This document shows, piece by piece, positions 3,646-64,000 of a DNA stretch of 64,000 nt. Each line of letters starts with the position of its first letter. Within the stretch, counting starts at the first letter, position 1. The stretch lies in the NCBI GenBank assembly GCA_963827305.1, contig CAWHAM010000007.1:14812-78811 (forward strand), in the 5' to 3' direction. Below the pieces are notes generated by a model, which worked only from the letters and a program-made list of their open reading frames with translations, searched no databases and had not been told where the DNA came from. Origin of the DNA: an uncultured Chloroflexia bacterium. GTDB taxonomy: Bacteria; Chloroflexota; Anaerolineae; Anaerolineales; Villigracilaceae. The position numbers were made by a program, and so were the translations under genes.

Positions 3646-4632
3646 TCAATCCCTCAAGGCACGACCAGTCAGATTGAGAAAGACAGCTTCCAGGTCGGGT
3701 TCATGCACCTCGACCGACTCGACCTGGATCCCGGCTTCATCGGCCAGGCGCAGGATGAAAGGCATGGCCTTGCGGCCGCGCGTGGCATTGACCACCATCA
3801 ATCCGCTGACGTTGGTCTTGTTCCCGCCTTCTTCGCCTGGCGGATCGTAAATGGCCTTGGTGACGCCTTCCACAGAAGTGCGGATGTGCTCCAGTGTTCC
3901 GTTGCTGATGACTGCCTGACCTACCTTGAAGATCAGTCTATCCTGTTCGCCCACCTGCAGGATCAGGTCGCCCGGGGTACCCATGGCGATGATCTCGCCG
4001 TGATCGATGATCCCGACCCGGTCGCTCAATTCCTGGGCTTCCTCCATCAGATGCGTGGTATAGAGCACGGTCATGCCGCGTTGTTCGCGCAGCTGCTTGA
4101 CGGTATCGAGAATGCGCCGCCGGCTTTGCGGGTCGATCCCCACCGTTGGTTCATCCATGTAAATGACCTGTGGATCGTGCAGCAGCCCGGCGGCAATATT
4201 GATGCGCCGCTTCATCCCGCCTGAAAAGGTTTCGATCCGGTCGAATTGGCGATCGCTCAGTTCCACAAATTCAAGCATGGTATCAATCCGTTTGGCCAGG
4301 TCCTTCCCGCCCAGCCCGTACATACGGCCAAAGAACTCCAGGTTTTGGCGTGCATTCAAGGTTGGGTAAAGGGCAATTTCCTGCGGGACAACTCCCAGCA
4401 GGCGCTTGGCTTCCAGCGGCTGGCGGGTGATCGAGTAACCGCCGATGGTTGCATCTCCACTGGTTGGCTCGAGCAGACCGCTGATCATCGAGATGGTGGT
4501 GGTTTTGCCGGCCCCGTTCGGGCCCAGCAGGCTGAAGATCTCACCCTTTTGGATATCGAACGATATCCCTTTCACGGCGGTCAAGTCGCCATATTTCTTG
4601 ACCAGATTTTTTACTTCGAGTATGGCTGTCAT
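3646..4632 (-). CDS. ABC transporter ATP-binding protein (ABC-2/DrrA-like, with C-terminal extra domain)
   Basis: Walker A GPNGAGKTTT, signature SGGMKRR, Walker B VIYMDEPTVGID, H-loop TTHLMEE, plus a roughly 100-aa C-terminal extension. Confidence 0.95.
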   Translation of the reverse strand: MTAILEVKNLVKKYGDLTAVKGISFDIQKGEIFSLLGPNGAGKTTTISMISGLLEPTSGDATIGGYSITRQPLEAKRLLGVVPQEIALYPTLNARQNLEFFGRMYGLGGKDLAKRIDTMLEFVELSDRQFDRIETFSGGMKRRINIAAGLLHDPQVIYMDEPTVGIDPQSRRRILDTVKQLREQRGMTVLYTTHLMEEAQELSDRVGIIDHGEIIAMGTPGDLILQVGEQDRLIFKVGQAVISNGTLEHIRTSVEGVTKAIYDPPGEEGGNKTNVSGLMVVNATRGRKAMPFILRLADEAGIQVESVEVHEPDLEAVFLNLTGRALRD

Positions 4633-4669
4633 GGTTCCTCCTGAAATACTATCAATTCTAATGGTGTGG

Positions 4670-5137
4670 TTAAGCAGGAAAAAGCGCTGTCCCCACCAAG
4701 GCCAGGCCGCCCAGGATGAGCAGGGCCGGCCAGAAGATGCCGATGTCCAGGTTTAACAGGAAGACCACTGCCAGGATGGTCAACAGGATTCCCACGGTCA
4801 GTGATCCGGCCCCACCGCGCGTCAACCGATTGTTTTCCTGATAGATATCCCAAGCGGCGATATACGCCCAAAATGCAGGGATCAGGATAAACAGGGCCCA
4901 CCAGTTCATGAAGAAGGGAATGCCCAGGTTTTGCATCAAGAGGGCCACGCCCAGAAGGATTAAAAGCGCGCCAAAGAACCAGCCGGTGTGACGCGAGCCG
5001 CGCCTCTGCCAGCGTGCCTCGTGGCGAGCCCAGCGCTCTGCGCGGCGCTGCTCACGCCAGTCATGGTAGCTGGGAGATGGTTCGGGTGGCGGATTGGTTG
5101 GCTGATTCTGGTTGGGAATTGGGTTTTGGTTGTTCAT
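4670..5137 (-). CDS. small membrane protein with Pro/Asn-rich N-terminus and Arg-rich juxtamembrane segment (possibly LiaF/LiaI-like TM domain)
   Basis: 155 aa. MNNQNPIPNQNQPTNPPPEPSP, then a basic stretch, then 4 predicted TM helices. In operon context. Confidence 0.5.
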   Translation of the reverse strand: MNNQNPIPNQNQPTNPPPEPSPSYHDWREQRRAERWARHEARWQRRGSRHTGWFFGALLILLGVALLMQNLGIPFFMNWWALFILIPAFWAYIAAWDIYQENNRLTRGGAGSLTVGILLTILAVVFLLNLDIGIFWPALLILGGLALVGTALFPA

Positions 5138-5188
5138 AATTTTTTCCTTTCTGGTTGTTGGAAGGTCTCAAGTTTTTTATTCGTTCTT

Positions 5189-6040
5189 TCATGTGGTTGC
5201 AACAGGCGGCTTGAGCGTGACGGCCGGGACGGTTGCAGCGGAAGGTGGAGGATTTTCCTGCACAGGTTCGGGCTGGCGCAAACGGAAGATCAGGAACAGG
5301 TTGACGATCGCGAATACACACATGAAGGCATAGGCCGGGAGAGCGCCGCCGAGACCAGAGAGCAGGGTCGCCCCGGTATCCATCGCGGCATGGTAAAGGA
5401 CCGCCAGCCAAACCCAGAACCATTGCCTGCGCGTGAAGGTTTGCAGAACGAGCATGGCCATGGCAATATGGGTCGGGATGGAGAAAAGACGTTGCAGGGC
5501 ACCCTGCAGGGAGTTGAACCAAGGCATCGACCAGTACCCGGAAACCTGTTGCTGGGTCTGCGCCAATTGACCGACCGGGACTATTTTGGAGAGATCCGCA
5601 TTCCGCAGATAGGCGAAATGCACAAAAGTGTACAGGGCAATCGCGCCGAAGATGATCGCCTCCGCGCCGCCGTGTCCGGCTCCCGTCAGTACGCCCTTTC
5701 GCCAGGAGCGTGCATCCTTCGCCCACCAGTGGAACATCTCATAGCGGAAGAGCTCCTCGAACAGGCCGGCGCTCAAGCCGACGTACACGGCATTGAATAT
5801 CAGCGCGGTTTCCGATGACATTTTTGTCAAAGGCGTGGGATTGACGACCAGGGTAAAAAGTGCGTTGAAAGGGATGTGCCCGATCTGCGAAAGGATGAAG
5901 GTCGCGGCGCCGATCAGCCACAGGCGTGCGCCGAGCTTCCAGCGTACGGCCAGGAAGATCGCCAGCCCGACGGGTATTGCGATCATTAGCAGGCTGTTCA
6001 GAAGATGGGCGAGAAAAATGTACAAGAATTTTGTGTCCAT
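5189..6040 (-). CDS. YhfC-family intramembrane metalloprotease
   Basis: Motifs GLFEELFRY, GAGHGGAEAI and LYHAAMD in a polytopic protein match the YhfC-family pattern. Start moved to the internal ATG at 6040 (MDTKFLYIF...), which is preceded by AGGAAGGA. The track start 6115 would overlap the upstream gene. Confidence 0.75.
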   Translation of the reverse strand: MDTKFLYIFLAHLLNSLLMIAIPVGLAIFLAVRWKLGARLWLIGAATFILSQIGHIPFNALFTLVVNPTPLTKMSSETALIFNAVYVGLSAGLFEELFRYEMFHWWAKDARSWRKGVLTGAGHGGAEAIIFGAIALYTFVHFAYLRNADLSKIVPVGQLAQTQQQVSGYWSMPWFNSLQGALQRLFSIPTHIAMAMLVLQTFTRRQWFWVWLAVLYHAAMDTGATLLSGLGGALPAYAFMCVFAIVNLFLIFRLRQPEPVQENPPPSAATVPAVTLKPPVATT

Positions 6041-6083
6041 TCCAATCCTTCCTAAAGGATGGCAAGATCGATTCCATGGATGT

Positions 6084-6911
6084 CTAGGTACTATTTCCCT
6101 GGCCTTGGTATTCAAAAGGTAGTCGGGGTCGTAGACTCCAGAAGATGATCGCGAGTAATAATCCCATGGCAGCAGTCACAGCACCATACTCGCCCAACAA
6201 TAGCCAGGTGTTGCCAGAGTCCGTTGTTAGAACATTGAACACATGTAACATGAATACATTATGACTTCCGTGAAGCAGCGCGACGGTCCACATACTACCT
6301 GATTTCAACCGGAGCCAGGCTGCCGCAAAGCTTAATCCAATTGCGAAAACGGTGAAGCAAACCAGGCTGTACGGCAAGGAAGTGTTAACCAACCGAACGT
6401 TCGAATAGATGATCAAAGGATAGTGCCAGACTGCCCAAATCAAACCCGTAATAATAGCGGTTTTGGAGAAGCTGGTAAGTTTAATCATTTTAGGGACGAG
6501 AAATCCGCGCCAGGCGACTTCTTCCAGGACGGCTGATAGGGTGCCATTGAACAACATGGTCAAAAGGTAGACCGGAAAGTTGGGGGAAAATTGGCCGTTA
6601 TATTTGCCCCGACCAGTAAGCCATACGAGGCCGTACTCGAGTAAACAATATATGAGCGGCATTACCAACCCTAGAACCAGATACGTTATCTTCCCCGGCT
6701 GCCAGCCGACTGGCCTTAGGCTGTGCTCGAAGACCAGGTAAGTGATGACTGCAGCAAGTCCGGGCGCAAGCATTAAAAGGCCTGCCGACTTGGATTGCCC
6801 ACCATTGATGGTCCCCGCTCGAAGAATAGGGATATAAGCCAGGGCACTGAAAATAACAGTCAATGCCAGGAAAACGATGATCTCACGCAAGGTCTTGCTT
6901 TTTTTGTCCAT
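6084..6911 (-). CDS. CPBP (CAAX/Abi) family intramembrane metalloprotease
   Basis: Motifs EEVAWRGFL, WAVWH and HGSHN. Start set to ATG at 6911 (MDKKSKTLREI...), because the longer track ORF overlaps the receiver gene. Confidence 0.85.
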   Translation of the reverse strand: MDKKSKTLREIIVFLALTVIFSALAYIPILRAGTINGGQSKSAGLLMLAPGLAAVITYLVFEHSLRPVGWQPGKITYLVLGLVMPLIYCLLEYGLVWLTGRGKYNGQFSPNFPVYLLTMLFNGTLSAVLEEVAWRGFLVPKMIKLTSFSKTAIITGLIWAVWHYPLIIYSNVRLVNTSLPYSLVCFTVFAIGLSFAAAWLRLKSGSMWTVALLHGSHNVFMLHVFNVLTTDSGNTWLLLGEYGAVTAAMGLLLAIIFWSLRPRLPFEYQGQGNST

Positions 6912-6921
6912 TCTGTGACCT

Positions 6922-7296
6922 CTATGACCTTTTCTGCATAACCTCTGCGAGCGCTTTCCGGAGGTTTTCGGGAGGATCACTTTTGCGAACAAAGGCATCC
7001 GCACCAGCCGCCAGGGCGAATGCCTGATAATCCGGATAGATCGAAATGACGATAATCTTAATCTGTGGCCATTTTGCCTTGATAAGCCTGGTTGCTTCCA
7101 GGCCGCCCATCTTTGGCATGCGTGCATCCATCAAGATGACATCGGGTTGAAGGTCTTCGACCAACTGGACAGCTTCAGTTCCGTTCGTAGCTTCACGGAC
7201 TTCCTCGAGTTGGTGCCAGACCTCCAACAGGGCTTTCATGCTCTGACGTGCCCGGGGTGTATCGTCAACGATGAGAACGCGGATTTTAGGGTTCAT
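6922..7296 (-). CDS. single-domain response regulator (CheY-like receiver, no output domain)
   Basis: 124 aa. IRVLIVDDTP, phospho-acceptor context DVILMDARMPKMGG, conserved K in KIIVISIY. Confidence 0.9.
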   Translation of the reverse strand: MNPKIRVLIVDDTPRARQSMKALLEVWHQLEEVREATNGTEAVQLVEDLQPDVILMDARMPKMGGLEATRLIKAKWPQIKIIVISIYPDYQAFALAAGADAFVRKSDPPENLRKALAEVMQKRS

Positions 7297-48017: not shown

Positions 48018-48557
48018 CTACAATCCACTCTTCCTGGTCACTGGGCCGGGCTTCTTTCCCGGGCGGATGTAACCAGCCGGAAGTTCAATCGGCATTCTCC
48101 GGTCTCGGAGCATTTTTAATAATACCCGAACGCGTTCTTTTCCAGGCAGGCGCGCATCAAAAATGGCTTCATACCCTGCAAACGGTCCCGAATGCACCAG
48201 GACGGTTTCGCCGGCTTTAAGCACATCGAATAATTCCCCACCGGCTGAGTTTATTTCTTCCACACGCTGCCGGATGGCATGGATCAAGCCGTCCGGTATA
48301 AAAGCCGGCTCACCTCCGAACGCGATCAGGCCGGCAGAGCCAGGCACATATTGCAGGGCCGACATGCCCATTTCCTCCAGATCTGCCTGGACAAAGATAT
48401 ACCCTGGGAAGTAAGGCCTGACCGGTTGGGCCCGCGGGTTGACAACCTGCACCCGGATGCGTGGGGCAAATGTCTCGATCCTGCGGAGTTCAAGTTGTTC
48501 AGCCAGCAATTTTTCCTTATGGGGCTTGCTGTGCAGCACATACCAATAAGCAGTCAT
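48018..48557 (-). CDS. specialised NusG paralog (RfaH/UpxY/LoaP-type; NGN plus KOW)
   Basis: 179 aa. NGN start WYVLHSKPHKEK, PGYIFV, KOW GETVLVHSGPFAGYEAIF. First gene of the sugar-modification operon, with a 3-nt gap to the epimerase gene. Confidence 0.8.
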   Translation of the reverse strand: MTAYWYVLHSKPHKEKLLAEQLELRRIETFAPRIRVQVVNPRAQPVRPYFPGYIFVQADLEEMGMSALQYVPGSAGLIAFGGEPAFIPDGLIHAIRQRVEEINSAGGELFDVLKAGETVLVHSGPFAGYEAIFDARLPGKERVRVLLKMLRDRRMPIELPAGYIRPGKKPGPVTRKSGL

Positions 48558-48781
48558 TATTTTTCCGTCTTCAGGAGTGGGAATCCCTTCCGCCCGATTT
48601 TCGCAGCAGGTTTAGGTCGAATTTGAACATCATTATAACAAATTCCCATGACTGCCTGAGTATGTACGATTCCCCATGGAAAGTAAAATCACATGCATTC
48701 ATTCCGATCAAGACAATCGGAAAAATATTGTTTCAATTCTCTTCCACGGATTGGATAAATCGGTTCACAGTCCTTCGGACT

Positions 48782-48809
48782 AAAAAAAACAGAGCTTTGT
48801 GAGCCCTGG
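48782..48809 (-). terminator. rho-independent terminator closing the tRNA-Met repeat array
   Basis: Minus strand reads CAGGGCT-CACAA-AGCTCTG-TTTTTTTT. Confidence 0.65.
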
Positions 48810-49150
48810 TTCCCTGTCGGTTGCAGGGGACAGGACATGCCTGGCCCGAATAAGGGGAAACCAGCGTCTAAAATAAAAGACGCCCTCTTGGACGTCTTTT
48901 CAGTTCCGGGGGCTGGACTCGCCTGTCCCCTGCAAGGGGAAACCAGTGCCTAAAATAAAAGACGCTCTCTTGGACGTCTTTTCATTTCCGGGGGCTCGAC
49001 TCGCCTGTCCCCTGCAAGGGGAAACCAGCGTCTACATCAAAAACGCCCTCTCGGACGTTTTTGATTAGTTGCCCGGGCTGGACTCGCCTGTCTCCTGCAA
49101 GGAGAAACCAGCGCCTAAAATAAAAGGCGCCCTCTTGGACGTCTTTTCAG
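48810..49150 (-). repeat. tandem array of four ~82-nt units downstream of tRNA-Met; each holds a terminator-like hairpin plus a partial tRNA 3' third split by a 19-nt insertion
   Basis: Units at 49069-49150, 48986-49068 and 48904-48985, plus a degenerate unit at 48810-48903. Each contains GGGGGCTGGACTCG (the tRNA 3' end, plus strand). Confidence 0.85.
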
Positions 49151-49222
49151 TTGCGGGGGCTGGACTCGAACCAGCGACCTCCAGGTTATGAGCCTGACGA
49201 GCTGCCACTGCTCTACCCCGCG
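49151..49222 (-). tRNA. tRNA-Met (CAT), initiator type
   Basis: CGCGGGGTAGAGCAGTGGCAGCTCGTCAGGCTCATAACCTGGAGGTCGCTGGTTCGAGTCCAGCCCCCGCAA folds as a cloverleaf. C1xA72 mismatch and a CGCGGGG/CCCCGCA acceptor, as in bacterial tRNA-fMet. The 29:41 pair is A:U rather than G:C. CCA is not encoded. Confidence 0.85.
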
Positions 49223-56435: not shown

Positions 56436-56470
56436 CGGGTAGCCAAATGGCTGCCCGATAATTTTATAAG
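56436..56470 (+). terminator. rho-independent terminator after the gltD-like gene
   Basis: CGGGTAGCC-AAAT-GGCTGCCCG followed by ATAATTTTAT. Confidence 0.55.
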
Positions 56471-56727
56471 GGCAATCGCCGACCCTGTTGGATCGGCGGT
56501 AAAAAGAGTCGGGTGCCCGGATTTGCGTCAGTCCCTAAATGGGAAACCGCCGACCCTTTTTGGATCGGCGGTAAAAAAAAGTCGGGGCGCCCGGATTTGC
56601 GTCAGTCCTTCAATGGGAAACCGCCAACCCTTTTTGGATCGGCGGTAAAAAAAAGTCGGGGCGCCCGGATTTGCGTCAGTCCCTCAATGAGAAACCGCCA
56701 ACCCTTTTTGGATCGGCGATAAAAAAA
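56471..56727 (-). repeat. tandem array of three ~73-nt units (plus a hairpin-only remnant) downstream of tRNA-Pro; same architecture as the tRNA-Met array
   Basis: Units at 56655-56727, 56581-56654 and 56508-56580, remnant at 56471-56507. Each unit starts (plus strand) with GTCGGGGCGCCCGGATTTG, which equals the tRNA-Pro 3' end. Confidence 0.85.
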
Positions 56728-56728
56728 G

Positions 56729-56803
56729 TCGGGGCGCCCGGATTTGAACCGGGGACCTCTGCGTCCCGAACGCAGCGCTCTAGCCGGGCTGAGCCACGCC
56801 CCG
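56729..56803 (-). tRNA. tRNA-Pro (CGG)
   Basis: CGGGGCGTGGCTCAGCCCGGCTAGAGCGCTGCGTTCGGGACGCAGAGGTCCCCGGTTCAAATCCGGGCGCCCCGA: 75 nt, cloverleaf, anticodon loop TTCGGGA. CCA is not encoded. Confidence 0.9.
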
Positions 56804-56953
56804 AAAAGTCCCACTCTATGGGACAAGCAAGGCGGGATTATAACTGTCTGCACCTGATTTGACAAGCTGTTTGCGGTATAATCCATTCGATATCTCGATT
56901 ACCCCGTAGGGGCACAGCGACGCTGTGCCCCTACCTTTGTGAGGAATTTTCCT

Positions 56954-59516
56954 ATGGTCGAACCTGAACCGACCGGCCCGGGGCCGGAACCAGTCAAACA
57001 AGTCATTGGCACCGTTCAGATGGCAGACATCGACGAGACCATGCGCATCGCCTACCTTGACTATGCCATGTCTGTCATCGTCGCGCGTGCCCTGCCGGAT
57101 GCGCGGGACGGATTGAAACCCGTCCACCGGCGGATCTTGTATGCCATGCAGGACATGGGCATCCGTGCCAATTCAGCTTTCAAGAAATCCGCCCGTATCG
57201 TCGGTGAAGTCCTGGGCAAGTATCACCCGCATGGCGATCTGGCTGTCTACGAGTTCGATGGCGCGCATGGCTCAGGATTTCTCCATGCGATATCTTCTGG
57301 TGGATGGCCAGGGCAACTTTGGGTCGGTGGATGGCGATGCACCCGCAGCCATGCGTTACACCGAAGCCCGCCTGCACAGAATGGCCGAGGAATTGCTGGC
57401 CGATCTTGACAAGGATACGGTGGACTTCACTGATAATTTCGATGGTTCGCTCAAAGAACCGCTGGTTCTGCCTTCCCGTCTCCCTAACCTGCTGCTCAAT
57501 GGATCGTCTGGGATTGCCGTTGGCATGGCAACCAATATCCCGCCACATAATCTCAAGGAACTGGCCGCGGCACTGATCTACCTTATCAACAACTACGATA
57601 CGATGGACGAAGTCCCGATCGAGTTTTTGATGAAATTCATTCCCGGACCGGATTTTCCCACCGGCGGTATCATCGTCGGAACAGAGGGTATCGAAGCCGC
57701 CTACGGGTCCGGGAAGGGCCGCATTGTGGTGCGTGGTAAAGCCCACATCGAAGAGATGTCCGGCAATCGCTACCGCATCGTCATCACCGAAATCCCCTAT
57801 CAGGTCAACAAGGCCACCCTGATCGAACGCATCGCCGACCTTGTCCGTGATGAGAAGATCGACTCCATCTCGGACCTGCGGGACGAGTTTGACCGGCGTG
57901 GCATGAGCATCGTCATCGAGCTGAAACGCGGCGCCCAGCCCAAGAAGGTGCTCAACCAGCTCTACAAGTACACGGCCCTCCAATCCACCTTTGGCGTACA
58001 GATGCTCGCCCTCGTTGACGGCGAACCGCGTCTTCTCCCGCTCAAACGGGCGCTGCAAATATTCATCGAACACCGCCAGACCGTGCTCACCCGCCGCACC
58101 CAATTCGAACTGGAAAAAGCCCGTGCACGTGCCCATATCCTGGAAGGTCTGACGATCGCCCTATCCAACCTGGATGCTGTCATTCAGACCATCCGCGAAT
58201 CCCCGGACGCGGATATGGCCAAGGAACGCCTGATGAAGCGTTTCAAATTGTCCGATCTCCAGGCCCAGGCCATCCTGGACATGCAACTGCGCCGCCTGGC
58301 TGCCCTGGAACGCCAGAAAATCGAGGATGAATACAAACAGGTCAAACAACAGATCGTCCACTTCGAAGACCTGCTTGCCCATCCAAAGAAGATCCTGGCG
58401 CTCATTCAGGAGGATTTGCGGGAACTCTCCGATAAATATGGCGACGAGCGTCGCACGCACATCGCCGTCGAGGCCATCGAGAACCTGAGCGAATTGGACC
58501 TCGTGCCAGACGAGGCCGTGCTGATCTCGCTCACCGCCCAGGGCTACGTCAAGCGGGTTGCTGCCGCCGCCTACCGTTACCAGGTGAAAGGCGGCAAGGG
58601 TGTGACCGGTCATATGACCAAGGAAGAAGATGAGATCCTGACCCTCATCCCAGCGCGCTCGCTAGACACCATGCTGTTCTTTTCCGACAAGGGCAAGGTT
58701 TATTCTGAAAAGGTCTACCAGATCCCCGACGCCGACCGGGCTGCCAAAGGCATCCCTCTGGTGAATGTGTTGTCGCTGGAGCCTGGTGAGATCATCACCG
58801 CGGCAGTAGCTGTGCCAAACTTCGAGACTGTGGAATTCATAACGCTTGCCACGCGCAATGGAAAGATCAAGCGCATGGCCCTGTCCGAGCTGGTGGCGGT
58901 CCGTCCCTCCGGCATCATCGCCATCGGGCTGGAAGAAGGTGATGAATTGGACTGGGCGCGCCTGACGCATGGCGACAACGAAATCATCCTTGTCACCGAG
59001 CAGGGGCAGGCACTGCGTTTCGCCGAGGACGAAGTCCGCTCGATGGGACGCTCGGCCGGCGGCGTGACCGGTATCCGGCTGGCCACCAATGACAAAGTCA
59101 CCAGCATGGAAGTCATTGAGGAAGGCGGCGATCTTTTACTGGTGACAACCCAGGGCTTTGGCAAGCGCACGGCTCTGACGGAGTACCCGGTCAAAGGGCG
59201 CGCCACCGGCGGAGTACAGACCATCGCCCGCGCCGCCGCCGACAAGATTGGCACCATCACATCCGCACGCGTCGTCCAGGAAGTCGACGATCTGACCATC
59301 ATCACCGCCAATGGCATGGTCCTGCGCACCAGGGTCAAGGATGTGAAACAAGCCGGGCGCGCCACGCGCGGCGTCCATCTGATGGAGGTCAAGGAAGGGG
59401 ACCGGGTGGTATCCATCGCCCGCATCGCCACTGCCGAGCTCAAAAAAGCCGGTGCCAGCACCAACGGCGAGCCTGGCCCTGAGCCAGGCAAACAGTTCGA
59501 ATTACCAAATATATAA
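56954..59516 (+). CDS. gyrA: DNA gyrase subunit A, with an apparent 1-nt insertion near 57254-57257
   Basis: The N-terminus ([33 protein letters not shown]...[12 protein letters not shown]) is in ORF 56939..57409. The rest ([23 protein letters not shown]...) is in ORF 57141..59516. ATG 56954 is preceded by GAGGA. Confidence 0.9.
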
Positions 59517-63299: not shown

Positions 63300-64000
63300 T
63301 CGCGCCACCCCCATAACTGGGGGCTTTCCCCCATTACTGGGGGCTTCCCCTTGCCCCACCCCCGACCCCTCCCCAAATCCTGCGGATTTAGGGAGGGGAG
63401 AACCTGACCCCACCCCCATTCTGGGGGCTTCCCCCATGCACCCTTCGCCCCATGGGGTGCAGGCGGGTACAGGCTGGGGGCTTCCCCTATTCACCCTTAG
63501 CCCCATGGGGGCAGGCGGGTACAGGCTACAGGCTTCTCCTGGCGCTGATCCCAAGCAGGAGAAGGATTTCTTTACAGCGCTATTAAAGTTTTAAGGTTCG
63601 GCACAGGTGAAACCCCCTCGGGGATTCCCAGCAACTCGTGTCCCACCCCCATAACTGGGGGCTTCCCCCATAACTGGGGGCTTCCCCCATGCTAGGGGTC
63701 CTGAAAGTGCACAGGACAGGCAAGCGGGATGCTGCGTGATCGCTGGGACTGCCAATCCTGAAAATACACAGGACTTTGGGGGCTGGAAGCCGCCTCGGGG
63801 AGTCCCAGCGACTCGTGTCGCTGGGACTGCCGATGGCCAGAGTACTGGCCACTTTGGCGGCTTGCCTGCCTGCGCCACTACCACAGGTACAGGTGCACCT
63901 GTGGCGCCCTGCTAATATGCCCTGACAAGAGTAGTCAGGACAGGCAGGGCAGGCAGGCACAGGTGAAGCCCCCTCGGGGAGTATTTGATATTTGAAAACA
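63300..64000. repeat. non-coding field of short GC-rich hairpin repeats (several families); runs to the window end
   Basis: CCCCCAT(A/T)ACTGGGGGCTT at 63308, 63328, 63413, 63646 and 63665. A 52-53-nt tandem duplicate at 63421-63473 and 63474-63525. GAAGCCCCCTCGGGGAGT-like copies at ~63607, ~63787 and ~63964. Perfect 11-bp hairpin at 63802-63827. Confidence 0.7.

Follow-up and report, generated by a model that had tools for sequence, protein, structure and literature searches.

Why are two different tRNA genes of one bacterial genome each followed by a tandem array whose units hold related 19-nt insertions at the same tRNA coordinate, although the rest of the units is not alike? The question arises from a stretch of 64,000 nucleotides of an uncultured Chloroflexia bacterium of the family Villigracilaceae (assembly GCA_963827305.1, contig CAWHAM010000007.1, positions 14,812 to 78,811 of the forward strand), called the window throughout, and from a first-pass annotation of its letters, which took the insertions for a shared junction motif such as a recombinase arm site, a mobile-element terminus or an RNA processing or recognition signal would leave. 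The motif is real, but it is a variant of a little-studied known kind, the RtT repeats behind tyrT of Escherichia coli. The units carry copies of the 3′ part of the adjacent tRNA, a terminator-type hairpin (hp1) and, within the copied T-arm, a second small hairpin (hp2). On balance they are probably RtT-like tRNA 3′-half repeats, which would have arisen by duplication or integration and been amplified by unequal recombination, and which would act, if at all, as trailer or terminator modules.

Just two intact tRNA genes were found in the window by ARAGORN and Rfam, both on the minus strand and each with a tandem array lying 3′ of it on its own strand. The genes, the arrays (delimited with Tandem Repeats Finder, TRF) and the parts of their units are as follows.

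49150-49222, minus strand: tRNA-Met(CAT), parent gene of the Met array (ARAGORN; Rfam RF00005, 63.4 bits)
48852-49168, minus strand: Met array, 82-nt period, 3.9 copies (TRF, unit table, sequence)
49087-49105, minus strand: insertion A1, TCTCCTTGCAGGAGACAGG (plus strand CCTGTCTCCTGCAAGGAGA), comprising hp2 UCUCC-UUGCA-GGAGA and the linker CAGG
49004-49022, minus strand: insertion A2, TCCCCTTGCAGGGGACAGG (sequence, unit table)
48922-48940, minus strand: insertion A3, the same as A2 (sequence, unit table)
48840-48858, minus strand: insertion A4, TCCCCTTATTCGGGCCAGG, a diverged distal Met copy, also 19 nt
49068-49086, minus strand: tRNA-Met copy from position 56 to the discriminator plus C, CGAGTCCAGCCCGGGCAAC, 17/19 identical to the gene
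48985-49003 and 48903-48921, minus strand: further tRNA-Met 3′ copies
48839-48820, minus strand: decayed tRNA 3′ copy after A4, CATGTCCTGTCCCCTGCAAC
56728-56803, minus strand: tRNA-Pro(CGG), parent gene of the Pro array (ARAGORN; Rfam, 63.1 bits)
56470-56746, minus strand: Pro array, 74-nt period, 3.8 copies (TRF)
56674-56692, minus strand: insertion B1, TCTCATTGAGGGACTGACG, comprising hp2 with a U-G pair and the linker CUGACG
56600-56618, minus strand: insertion B2, TCCCATTGAAGGACTGACG
56526-56544, minus strand: insertion B3, TCCCATTTAGGGACTGACG
56655-56673, minus strand: tRNA-Pro copy from position 56 to the discriminator plus C, CAAATCCGGGCGCCCCGAC, 19/19 identical
56581-56599 (19/19) and 56508-56525 (decayed, 18 nt), minus strand: further tRNA-Pro 3′ copies

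A unit of either array thus runs from a 19-nt copy of C56 to the discriminator plus C, through a hairpin region ending in GGTT and a 19-nt segment, to the next C56 copy. Read on the tRNA strand, the Met unit consists of the copy of tRNA positions 56-74, the terminator hairpin, a copied T-stem 5′ strand with GGTT at its end, hp2 and the linker, and the Pro unit of the copy of positions 56-74, a U-run, hp1 (ACCGCCGAUCC / GGGUYGGCGGU), UU, hp2 and the linker. On re-reading of the window, the coordinates and sequences given by the first-pass annotation, the GGTT before each insertion and the tRNA position 56 after it proved exact: A1 is flanked by GGTT at 49109-49106 and on its other side by CGAGTCC..., which is tRNA-Met from position 56 onward, and B1 by GGTT at 56696-56693 and by CAAATCC.... 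Both insertion types had also been called exactly 19 nt long, which holds for all six well-preserved insertions of the window but not as a constant; homologous inserts elsewhere measure 19, 23, 28, 32, 33 and 37-45 nt, so the length of 19 carries no special meaning.

Aligned without gaps in a fixed register, Met and Pro insertions are identical at 10-12 of 19 positions and at 8-10 of the first 12, so that the agreement of about 10 of 12 claimed for that part lies at the upper end of what was measured. The identity exceeds that of random 19-mers of the window (P = 7e-4) and of shuffled sequences (P = 1.5e-3), and the local alignment of GGTT plus insertion scored above all 5000 shuffles; the likeness therefore survives the comparison with shuffled sequence that had been proposed as its test. 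The remainder of the Met and Pro units is essentially unrelated (P = 0.04), again as claimed. The proposed common core GGTTTCCCnTTGnAGGnnGAC had to be given up, since it fits no unit exactly and needs three mismatches, because its 'GAC' stands at different offsets in the two arrays. A hairpin consensus replaces it: the element common to both arrays is hp2, of the form UCYC(N)-loop-(N)GRGA, which follows directly on GGTT and is itself followed by a linker of 4-6 nt. The hp2 stem has 4-6 bp in the arrays, with a near-constant UCCC/GGGA part and a fifth pair that is U-A or C-G across arrays; between A1 and A2/A3 a C>U/G>A double change keeps the stem, and the loops differ (UUC, UUUC, UUAC, UUGCA and AUUGA). 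The MAFFT alignment of the hp1-hp2 segment, folded with RNAalifold, put hp1 out of register, and only the pair counts of hp2 are used here. The Met-Pro likeness would accordingly seem to be composed of the universal T-arm (GGTT), of the U/C-rich tail after hp1 and of the conserved hp2 stem, each in part.

The setting of hp2 in the tRNA copy bears on the nature of the units. With the 5′ strand of hp1 omitted, folding predicts a T-stem that closes around hp2, both in A1 and in units from four loci of other genomes (L001, L008, L010 and L006), by which the 'insertion' becomes an expansion of the T-loop in a tRNA-derived pseudo-3′-half; the window Met T-arm reads GCUGG, UU, hp2, CAGGCGAGU, CCAGC. 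With hp2 placed in the T-loop of a partial tRNA copy, the arrays are better described as RtT-like 3′-half repeats than as a tRNA gene hit by a mobile insertion. Other identities of the insertion were considered and rejected. Neither an anticodon-like stem-loop (on inspection, the Pro insertions have no U33/purine-37 pattern) nor a plus-strand primer-binding site for a tRNA 3′ end (on inspection, no CCA complement) fits, and derivation from the tRNA's own 5′ leader or body was not significant in local alignments against shuffles at 12 loci, the best being the window Pro leader (P = 0.057). That leader contains a perfect 6-bp hairpin (window 56808-56824, minus strand; GTCCCA-TAGAG-TGGGAC) similar to hp2 (TCCCA...GGGAC); the window and L068 both have it, and the leader of L075 and L078, conserved in other respects, lacks it (GCTTGCTTATT followed by CGGGG).

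The other hairpin of the units, hp1, has a 3′ strand that is a copy of the tRNA variable loop plus the T-stem 5′ strand. Its copies and the related terminator features are:

49117-49147, minus strand: intrinsic-terminator-type hairpin of Met unit 1, AAAAGACGUCC AAGA GGGCGCC UUUUAUUUU
49036-49065 (with compensatory changes), 48952-48982 and 48870-48900, minus strand: equivalent Met hairpins
48782-48808, minus strand: terminator at the end of the Met array, CAGGGCUCACAAAGCUCUG and then U8 (consensus terminator scan)
56694-56720, minus strand: hp1 of B1, terminator-like
56620-56646, 56546-56572 and 56476-56500, minus strand: equivalents of B1 hp1

The hp1 stems vary by locus yet always pair (ACCGCCGAUCC/GGGUCGGCGGU, CCCUUGACC/GGUCGAGGG, CCCUCGGC/GCCGGGGG and CCCACGAGGC/GCCUCGUGGG), the base is often AAACC...GGUUU, and G-U pairs occur only on the tRNA-sense strand. 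In the window, the hairpins of the Met units, the terminator that closes the Met array and the hp1 of the first Pro unit were picked out as terminator-like by consensus scans; the final units of L008 and L009 close with an hp1 that has a better T-tract. The 3′ strand of the window Pro hp1 contains the T-stem GGCGG of the other tRNA-Pro allele (that of L078-L085) and not the window's own CCCGG, which, on a comparison of alleles that differ at two positions only, would fit displacement of the tRNA 3′ part by integration. The tRNA-Pro(CGG) allele of L078-L085 reads GGCGG TCCAAAT CCGCC, its T-loop starting with TC in place of the canonical TT. Unrelated scan matches in L012 (Pseudohoeflea) and L049 (metagenome) are series of terminator-like hairpins in tandem, which end in GGTTTCTC..., as in GCCCGGGACA...TGTCCCGGGC GGTTTCTCTTTCTGGG, and the fetched stretches showed no tRNA; these two loci display a 'GGTTTCYC' tail that is common in repeated terminator-type hairpins.

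The same architecture recurs in other bacteria. A scan that took a single genome from each species and asked for two copies of the motif at a distance of 45-75 nt returned 18 loci, seven of which are Chloroflexota arrays of the window type (L001, L008, L009, L010, L013, L015 and L017) and two Lachnospiraceae arrays (L005 and L006); a metagenome scan added L020 and L028-L030, giving 11 other Chloroflexota loci in total. The other loci of the 18, like most matches of the tandem-motif scans altogether, were set aside as unrelated repeats, among them leucine-rich-repeat and collagen-like coding repeats and other tandem arrays. The visible tRNAs are tRNA-Pro with anticodon TGG, CGG or GGG in Chloroflexota and tRNA-Leu in L006; no tRNA is visible in L017, whose contig begins within the array, or in L005, where it lies beyond the stretch that was fetched. 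Wherever a tRNA is visible, the array is located downstream and in the same orientation. In all these arrays hp2 begins right after the T-stem 5′ copy plus TT, and after the insert the sequence resumes at C56 in Chloroflexota (in L001 some bases later, at the T-stem 3′ strand) and at position 59/60 in L006. The fixed tRNA coordinate noticed in the window is thereby borne out, at the 55/56 junction of the T-loop in the 11 further Chloroflexota loci and immediately behind T55 in the two Lachnospiraceae loci, whose units have no acceptor 3′ strand. Compared with the adjacent gene, 14-19 of 19 positions are identical in the tRNA 3′ blocks and 9-14 of 14 in the 5′ blocks, the values for L001, L008, L009, L010, L013, L015 and L028 against their local tRNA being 15-19/19 and 11-14/14, respectively. 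Within the window and the Chloroflexota and Lachnospiraceae array loci, the motif is confined to the arrays, bar three coding-sequence matches, two of them in the 64-kb window. No Rfam family other than tRNA matched: at the gathering score the window returns its two tRNAs only, and scans at E<=10 were also negative. Four scans of viral contigs for the motif, as a phage or plasmid attachment site (attP), gave nothing relevant.

Flanking proteins place the source genome in the Anaerolineales, and comparison of syntenic loci in relatives shows how the unit number changes. At the tRNA-Met site no unit is present in L072, L087 and L088, one in L068 and about four in the window; the epimerase of L068 is 92% identical to that of the window, and its single Met unit has an identical hp2. 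In L087 the tRNA-Met gene is followed by a terminator of the type found in the window units, ending ...UUUUAGA, and then by unique DNA, and in L073 tRNA-Met itself is gone but a relic composed of a tRNA 3′ fragment, terminator and GGTT persists before the NusG gene. The tRNA-Pro site holds one decayed unit in L068, L074 and L078 and 3.8 in the window. This series of unit numbers indicates that the arrays grow and shrink from a common single unit.

The orthologous tRNA-Pro and tRNA-Met sites are also integration hot spots. At the tRNA-Pro site of L075-L077, a hicB-hicA cassette of about 0.95 kb, co-oriented with the tRNA (at about 4050-4940 in L075), lies between hp1/hp2 on one side and the linker plus 3′ fragment on the other (CCTAGGGGACTGGCG / CAACACGGCCCGCCCCGAC); the displaced 3′ fragment belongs to the type of the other tRNA-Pro allele and retains the native terminator. 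The position of the cassette inside a unit points to recombination at or near hp2. At tRNA-Pro(CGG) of L080 and L082-L085 there is a prophage-like island (HIRAN, helix-turn-helix (HTH) and LexA DNA-binding domains) whose identity block starts from the anticodon stem, and the same site of L081 holds a different island (4050-6437) with a 343-aa gene that has a faint Phage_integrase match, its identity block starting with ATCC in the T-loop; both island types end in tRNA-Pro 3′ fragments of the attR type. After tRNA-Met, L088 carries an integrase N-terminal fragment and an excisionase-like HTH_17 gene. In L013 an AT-rich segment of about 0.9 kb (6150-7090) with a gene for an F420H2-dependent quinone reductase starts at the linker/C56 junction of the second unit and ends at an older decayed unit (GGTCGAAGGATT CCCTATGCAAGGA TAACGCAGGTTAAAT AAATCCCTCCGTCCC), where the sister genome L009 has at least four intact units. 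No recombinase was found near any array, in the window or elsewhere, by Pfam searches of the flanking open reading frames (ORFs) and tblastn with the L081 integrase.

A described element of this design does exist, contrary to what the first-pass annotation had supposed. Behind the tyrT-tyrV operon of E. coli lie 178-bp repeats in 3.1 copies, annotated rttR/tpr, and the final 19 nt of tRNA-Tyr recur in each of them. Such a unit aligns to tRNA-Tyr over its full length, as a degenerate copy (alignment P = 0.011), and holds the hairpin AGCGC-GCA-GCGCU in a 24-nt loop that is closed by the T-stem GAAGG/CCUUC; the segment AAGGTTCGA was considered as a T-arm 5′ copy and rejected, as it aligns to the acceptor/D region. 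To our knowledge, the tyrT repeats and rtT RNA, known since about 1980-1991, have no accepted origin or function; Bosl and Kersten are said to have reported in 1991 that rtT RNA is released from the tyrT transcript by processing. The window units share with RtT the tandem arrangement 3′ of a tRNA and co-oriented with it, the 19-nt tRNA 3′ end in each unit, and the degenerate tRNA copy with a T-stem around an expanded loop that holds a small hairpin (5 bp in E. coli). They differ from it in sequence and show no covariance-model similarity: Rfam RF00391 matches the tyrT repeats four times and gives no RtT match in the Met array at E<=10, so the window units are not RF00391 members and are alike in architecture only. 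The E. coli unit of 178 nt moreover covers the whole tRNA and overlaps the tpr ORF, whereas the window units span 74-82 nt and the 3′ half only, carry an additional terminator-type hairpin on the T-stem 5′ strand, and possess a UCCC/GGGA hairpin that is common to different tRNAs and phyla. Like these units, RtT repeats vary in number, the copies differing among E. coli and Shigella strains (PMC3318445), and rtT RNA, the product of a single repeat unit of the tyrT operon, has been linked to stress and to the stringent response (PMC3318445; bioRxiv 10.1101/2024.07.17.603846).

Two other known systems come close in part. Attachment (att) scars of tRNA-targeting tyrosine integrases of the T-loop sublocation class likewise leave direct repeats of the tRNA 3′ end that start in the T-loop, as the 19-nt repeats of the window do at C56, and relatives hold islands, an integrase-like gene, an integrase fragment, an excisionase-like gene or a toxin-antitoxin cassette at the same tRNA-Pro and tRNA-Met sites; the window repeats, however, enclose no integrase or cargo, form tandem units of about 80 bp, and have a pseudo-T-arm split by a conserved hairpin in place of an uninterrupted identity block. 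Tandem or bidirectional intrinsic terminators and repeat elements that bear terminators resemble hp1, an A/U-flanked, G+C-rich hairpin followed by a U-rich tract, but lack the tRNA-derived blocks and the second conserved hairpin of the window units, in which, in addition, the U-tract is broken by CCC. Other classes were rejected: a dispersed palindrome of the repetitive extragenic palindrome (REP) or miniature inverted-repeat transposable element (MITE) kind, since in the 64 kb the motif is found just in the two arrays and two coding-sequence matches; an integron attC site (RYYYAAC...GTTRRRY), the hp1 base reading RGAAAC...GTTTCY on inspection and no integrase being present; a CRISPR-like array, as the whole 74-82 nt unit repeats with no variable part; and a tRNA intron (archaeal bulge-helix-bulge or group I), as the units have no tRNA 5′ half and only two intact genes were found.

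If the units are RtT-like 3′-half repeats, a tRNA 3′ end would have been duplicated, by tandem duplication or by site-specific integration at tRNA genes, and one founding unit amplified or contracted by unequal recombination. The units may be co-transcribed with the tRNA as its trailer, in which hp1 and the UUUCCCnUU tract could serve as a terminator or 3′-end protector, and hp2, overlapping the U/C-rich tail of hp1, would stop the pseudo-T-arm from being a normal T-arm. The architecture, homology, hairpin conservation, copy-number dynamics and E. coli parallel are observed; transcription, termination and any function are inferred. Several observations weigh against this account. Apart from the copies flagged by the terminator scans, hp1 is followed by just UUU and then CCC, a short U-tract, and termination alone leaves the conservation of UCCC/GGGA across phyla unexplained. 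T-stem pairing is lost in the window Pro units (3/5 pairs) and in L015, with hp1 kept there, and the acceptor 3′ copies decay as well, so that selection, if any, would act on hp1 plus hp2 and not on tRNA-likeness. Even hp2 retains no more than 2-3 bp where a lone relic unit is left (the L068 Pro site, L074 and L078), which implies that selection on it is not strong everywhere. The hicAB cargo sits within an orthologous unit, and both arrays are expanded in the window genome and both single in L068, a joint expansion that hints at a trans-acting factor.

These last two observations are among those that speak for hp2 and its linker being a site of recombination, or the fused ends of small cassettes that integrate into T-loops, either in tRNA genes or in displaced tRNA 3′ fragments, the arrays then being cargo-less att units multiplied in trans by a tyrosine recombinase through attL x attR exchange between sister chromosomes. 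We regard this as possible but rather unlikely. The tRNA 3′ repeats of the units do start in the T-loop, which is reportedly a hallmark of tRNA-targeting integrases in the classes of Williams (2002), and the precise position of the hicB-hicA cassette in L075-L077, the attR-type tRNA-Pro fragments of the islands in L080, L082-L085 and L081, the integrase fragment and HTH_17 gene of L088, the gene-bearing segment that begins at the linker/C56 junction in L013 and the match of the window Pro hp1 3′ strand to the T-stem of the other tRNA-Pro allele (L078) all agree with it. Against this stand the lack of a recombinase within reach of 13 arrays and of a match in viral contigs, a unit of 74-82 bp that is too small for a circular substrate, an inverted repeat of just 4-6 bp, the split T-arm, which is uninterrupted in a standard integrase attR, the mere 10-12/19 (about 60%) identity of Met and Pro copies within one genome, and Lachnospiraceae units devoid of the acceptor 3′ strand. 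Of the options raised at the outset, a link to mobile elements is thus supported by the hot spots and the hicAB cassette, and the missing recombinase, the low identity and a motif that is not dispersed in the window speak against an active element. The RNA-level option gains from the covarying hp2 pairs, from G-U pairs restricted to the tRNA strand and from the constant co-orientation with the tRNA; the three options are not told apart. In its specific form, with hp2 as a recognition or processing signal and the units cut from the tRNA precursor as RtT-like small RNAs that have a tRNA-like 3′ end and would play a regulatory part of their own, for example as a tRNA-mimic decoy, it agrees further with the same hairpin at the same T-loop position in two phyla and with the precedent of E. 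coli rtT RNA, but we think it unlikely: the acceptor 3′ copies are free to decay (CCGGGCA, CCCCGGA) and lack a 5′ partner, the units are located behind terminator-type hairpins, the Chloroflexota units fold with modest z-scores (-1.1 to -3.0), hp2 is eroded where units stand singly, and we know of no partner protein for hp2. That the Met-Pro likeness is a mere coincidence of two independent low-complexity hairpins beside GGTT is highly improbable; the motif is short and C/G-rich, its pairwise P is just about 1e-3 and the collection scans selected for it, but the same hairpin occupies the same tRNA coordinate in 13 independent arrays, tRNA adjacency and the split T-arm were no part of the search pattern, and in the window the motif is limited to the two arrays, bar the two coding-sequence matches.

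Several further features of the window were recorded. A NusG paralog (48018-48557, minus strand), which heads a polysaccharide-type operon with epimerase, DegT aminotransferase and MFS genes, follows directly downstream of the Met array; a promoter-like stretch, TTTCCATGGGGAATC...GGGAATTTGTTATAATG, lies between the NusG paralog and position 48780 and is conserved in L068, and a similar one precedes the NusG gene in L072 and L088. The window gyrA is split into overlapping frames at 56939-57409 and 57141-59516 (plus strand; 156 aa and 791 aa), by a frameshift or an assembly indel; L079 has gyrA as three called genes, and in relatives, L068 and L074 among them, it is a single gene of 853-855 aa. 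At 63300-63700 (plus strand) REP-like hairpins, CCCCCAT(A/T)ACTGGGGGCTT, are clustered, several of them as tandem copies with a period of 19-20 nt, and are accompanied by 53-nt repeats; this sequence family differs from hp2.

Taken together with the E. coli repeats, the hairpin-expanded pseudo-T-arm might define an RtT-like class across Chloroflexota, Lachnospiraceae and Enterobacteria, with the GGUU-UCCC...GGGA hairpin as a putative functional site, a proposal that we put forward only tentatively and consider doubtful. The hairpin could be a docking or recombination site for small cassettes such as hicAB, giving tRNA-linked cassette arrays, or alternatively a recognition signal that frees tRNA-mimic small RNAs from tRNA precursors. 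Such units are easily confused with tRNA fragments, att sites or terminators, and their presence points to tRNA loci that serve as hot spots of integration and undergo fast expansion and contraction between close relatives. The RtT design, a copy of the tRNA 3′ half with a hairpin-expanded T-loop and a kept tRNA 3′ end, is thereby found beyond E. coli, after tRNA genes of unrelated bacteria, which turns a single-species curiosity into a recurring architecture open to comparative study, with the hp2 hairpin and the hp1 terminator as testable candidates.

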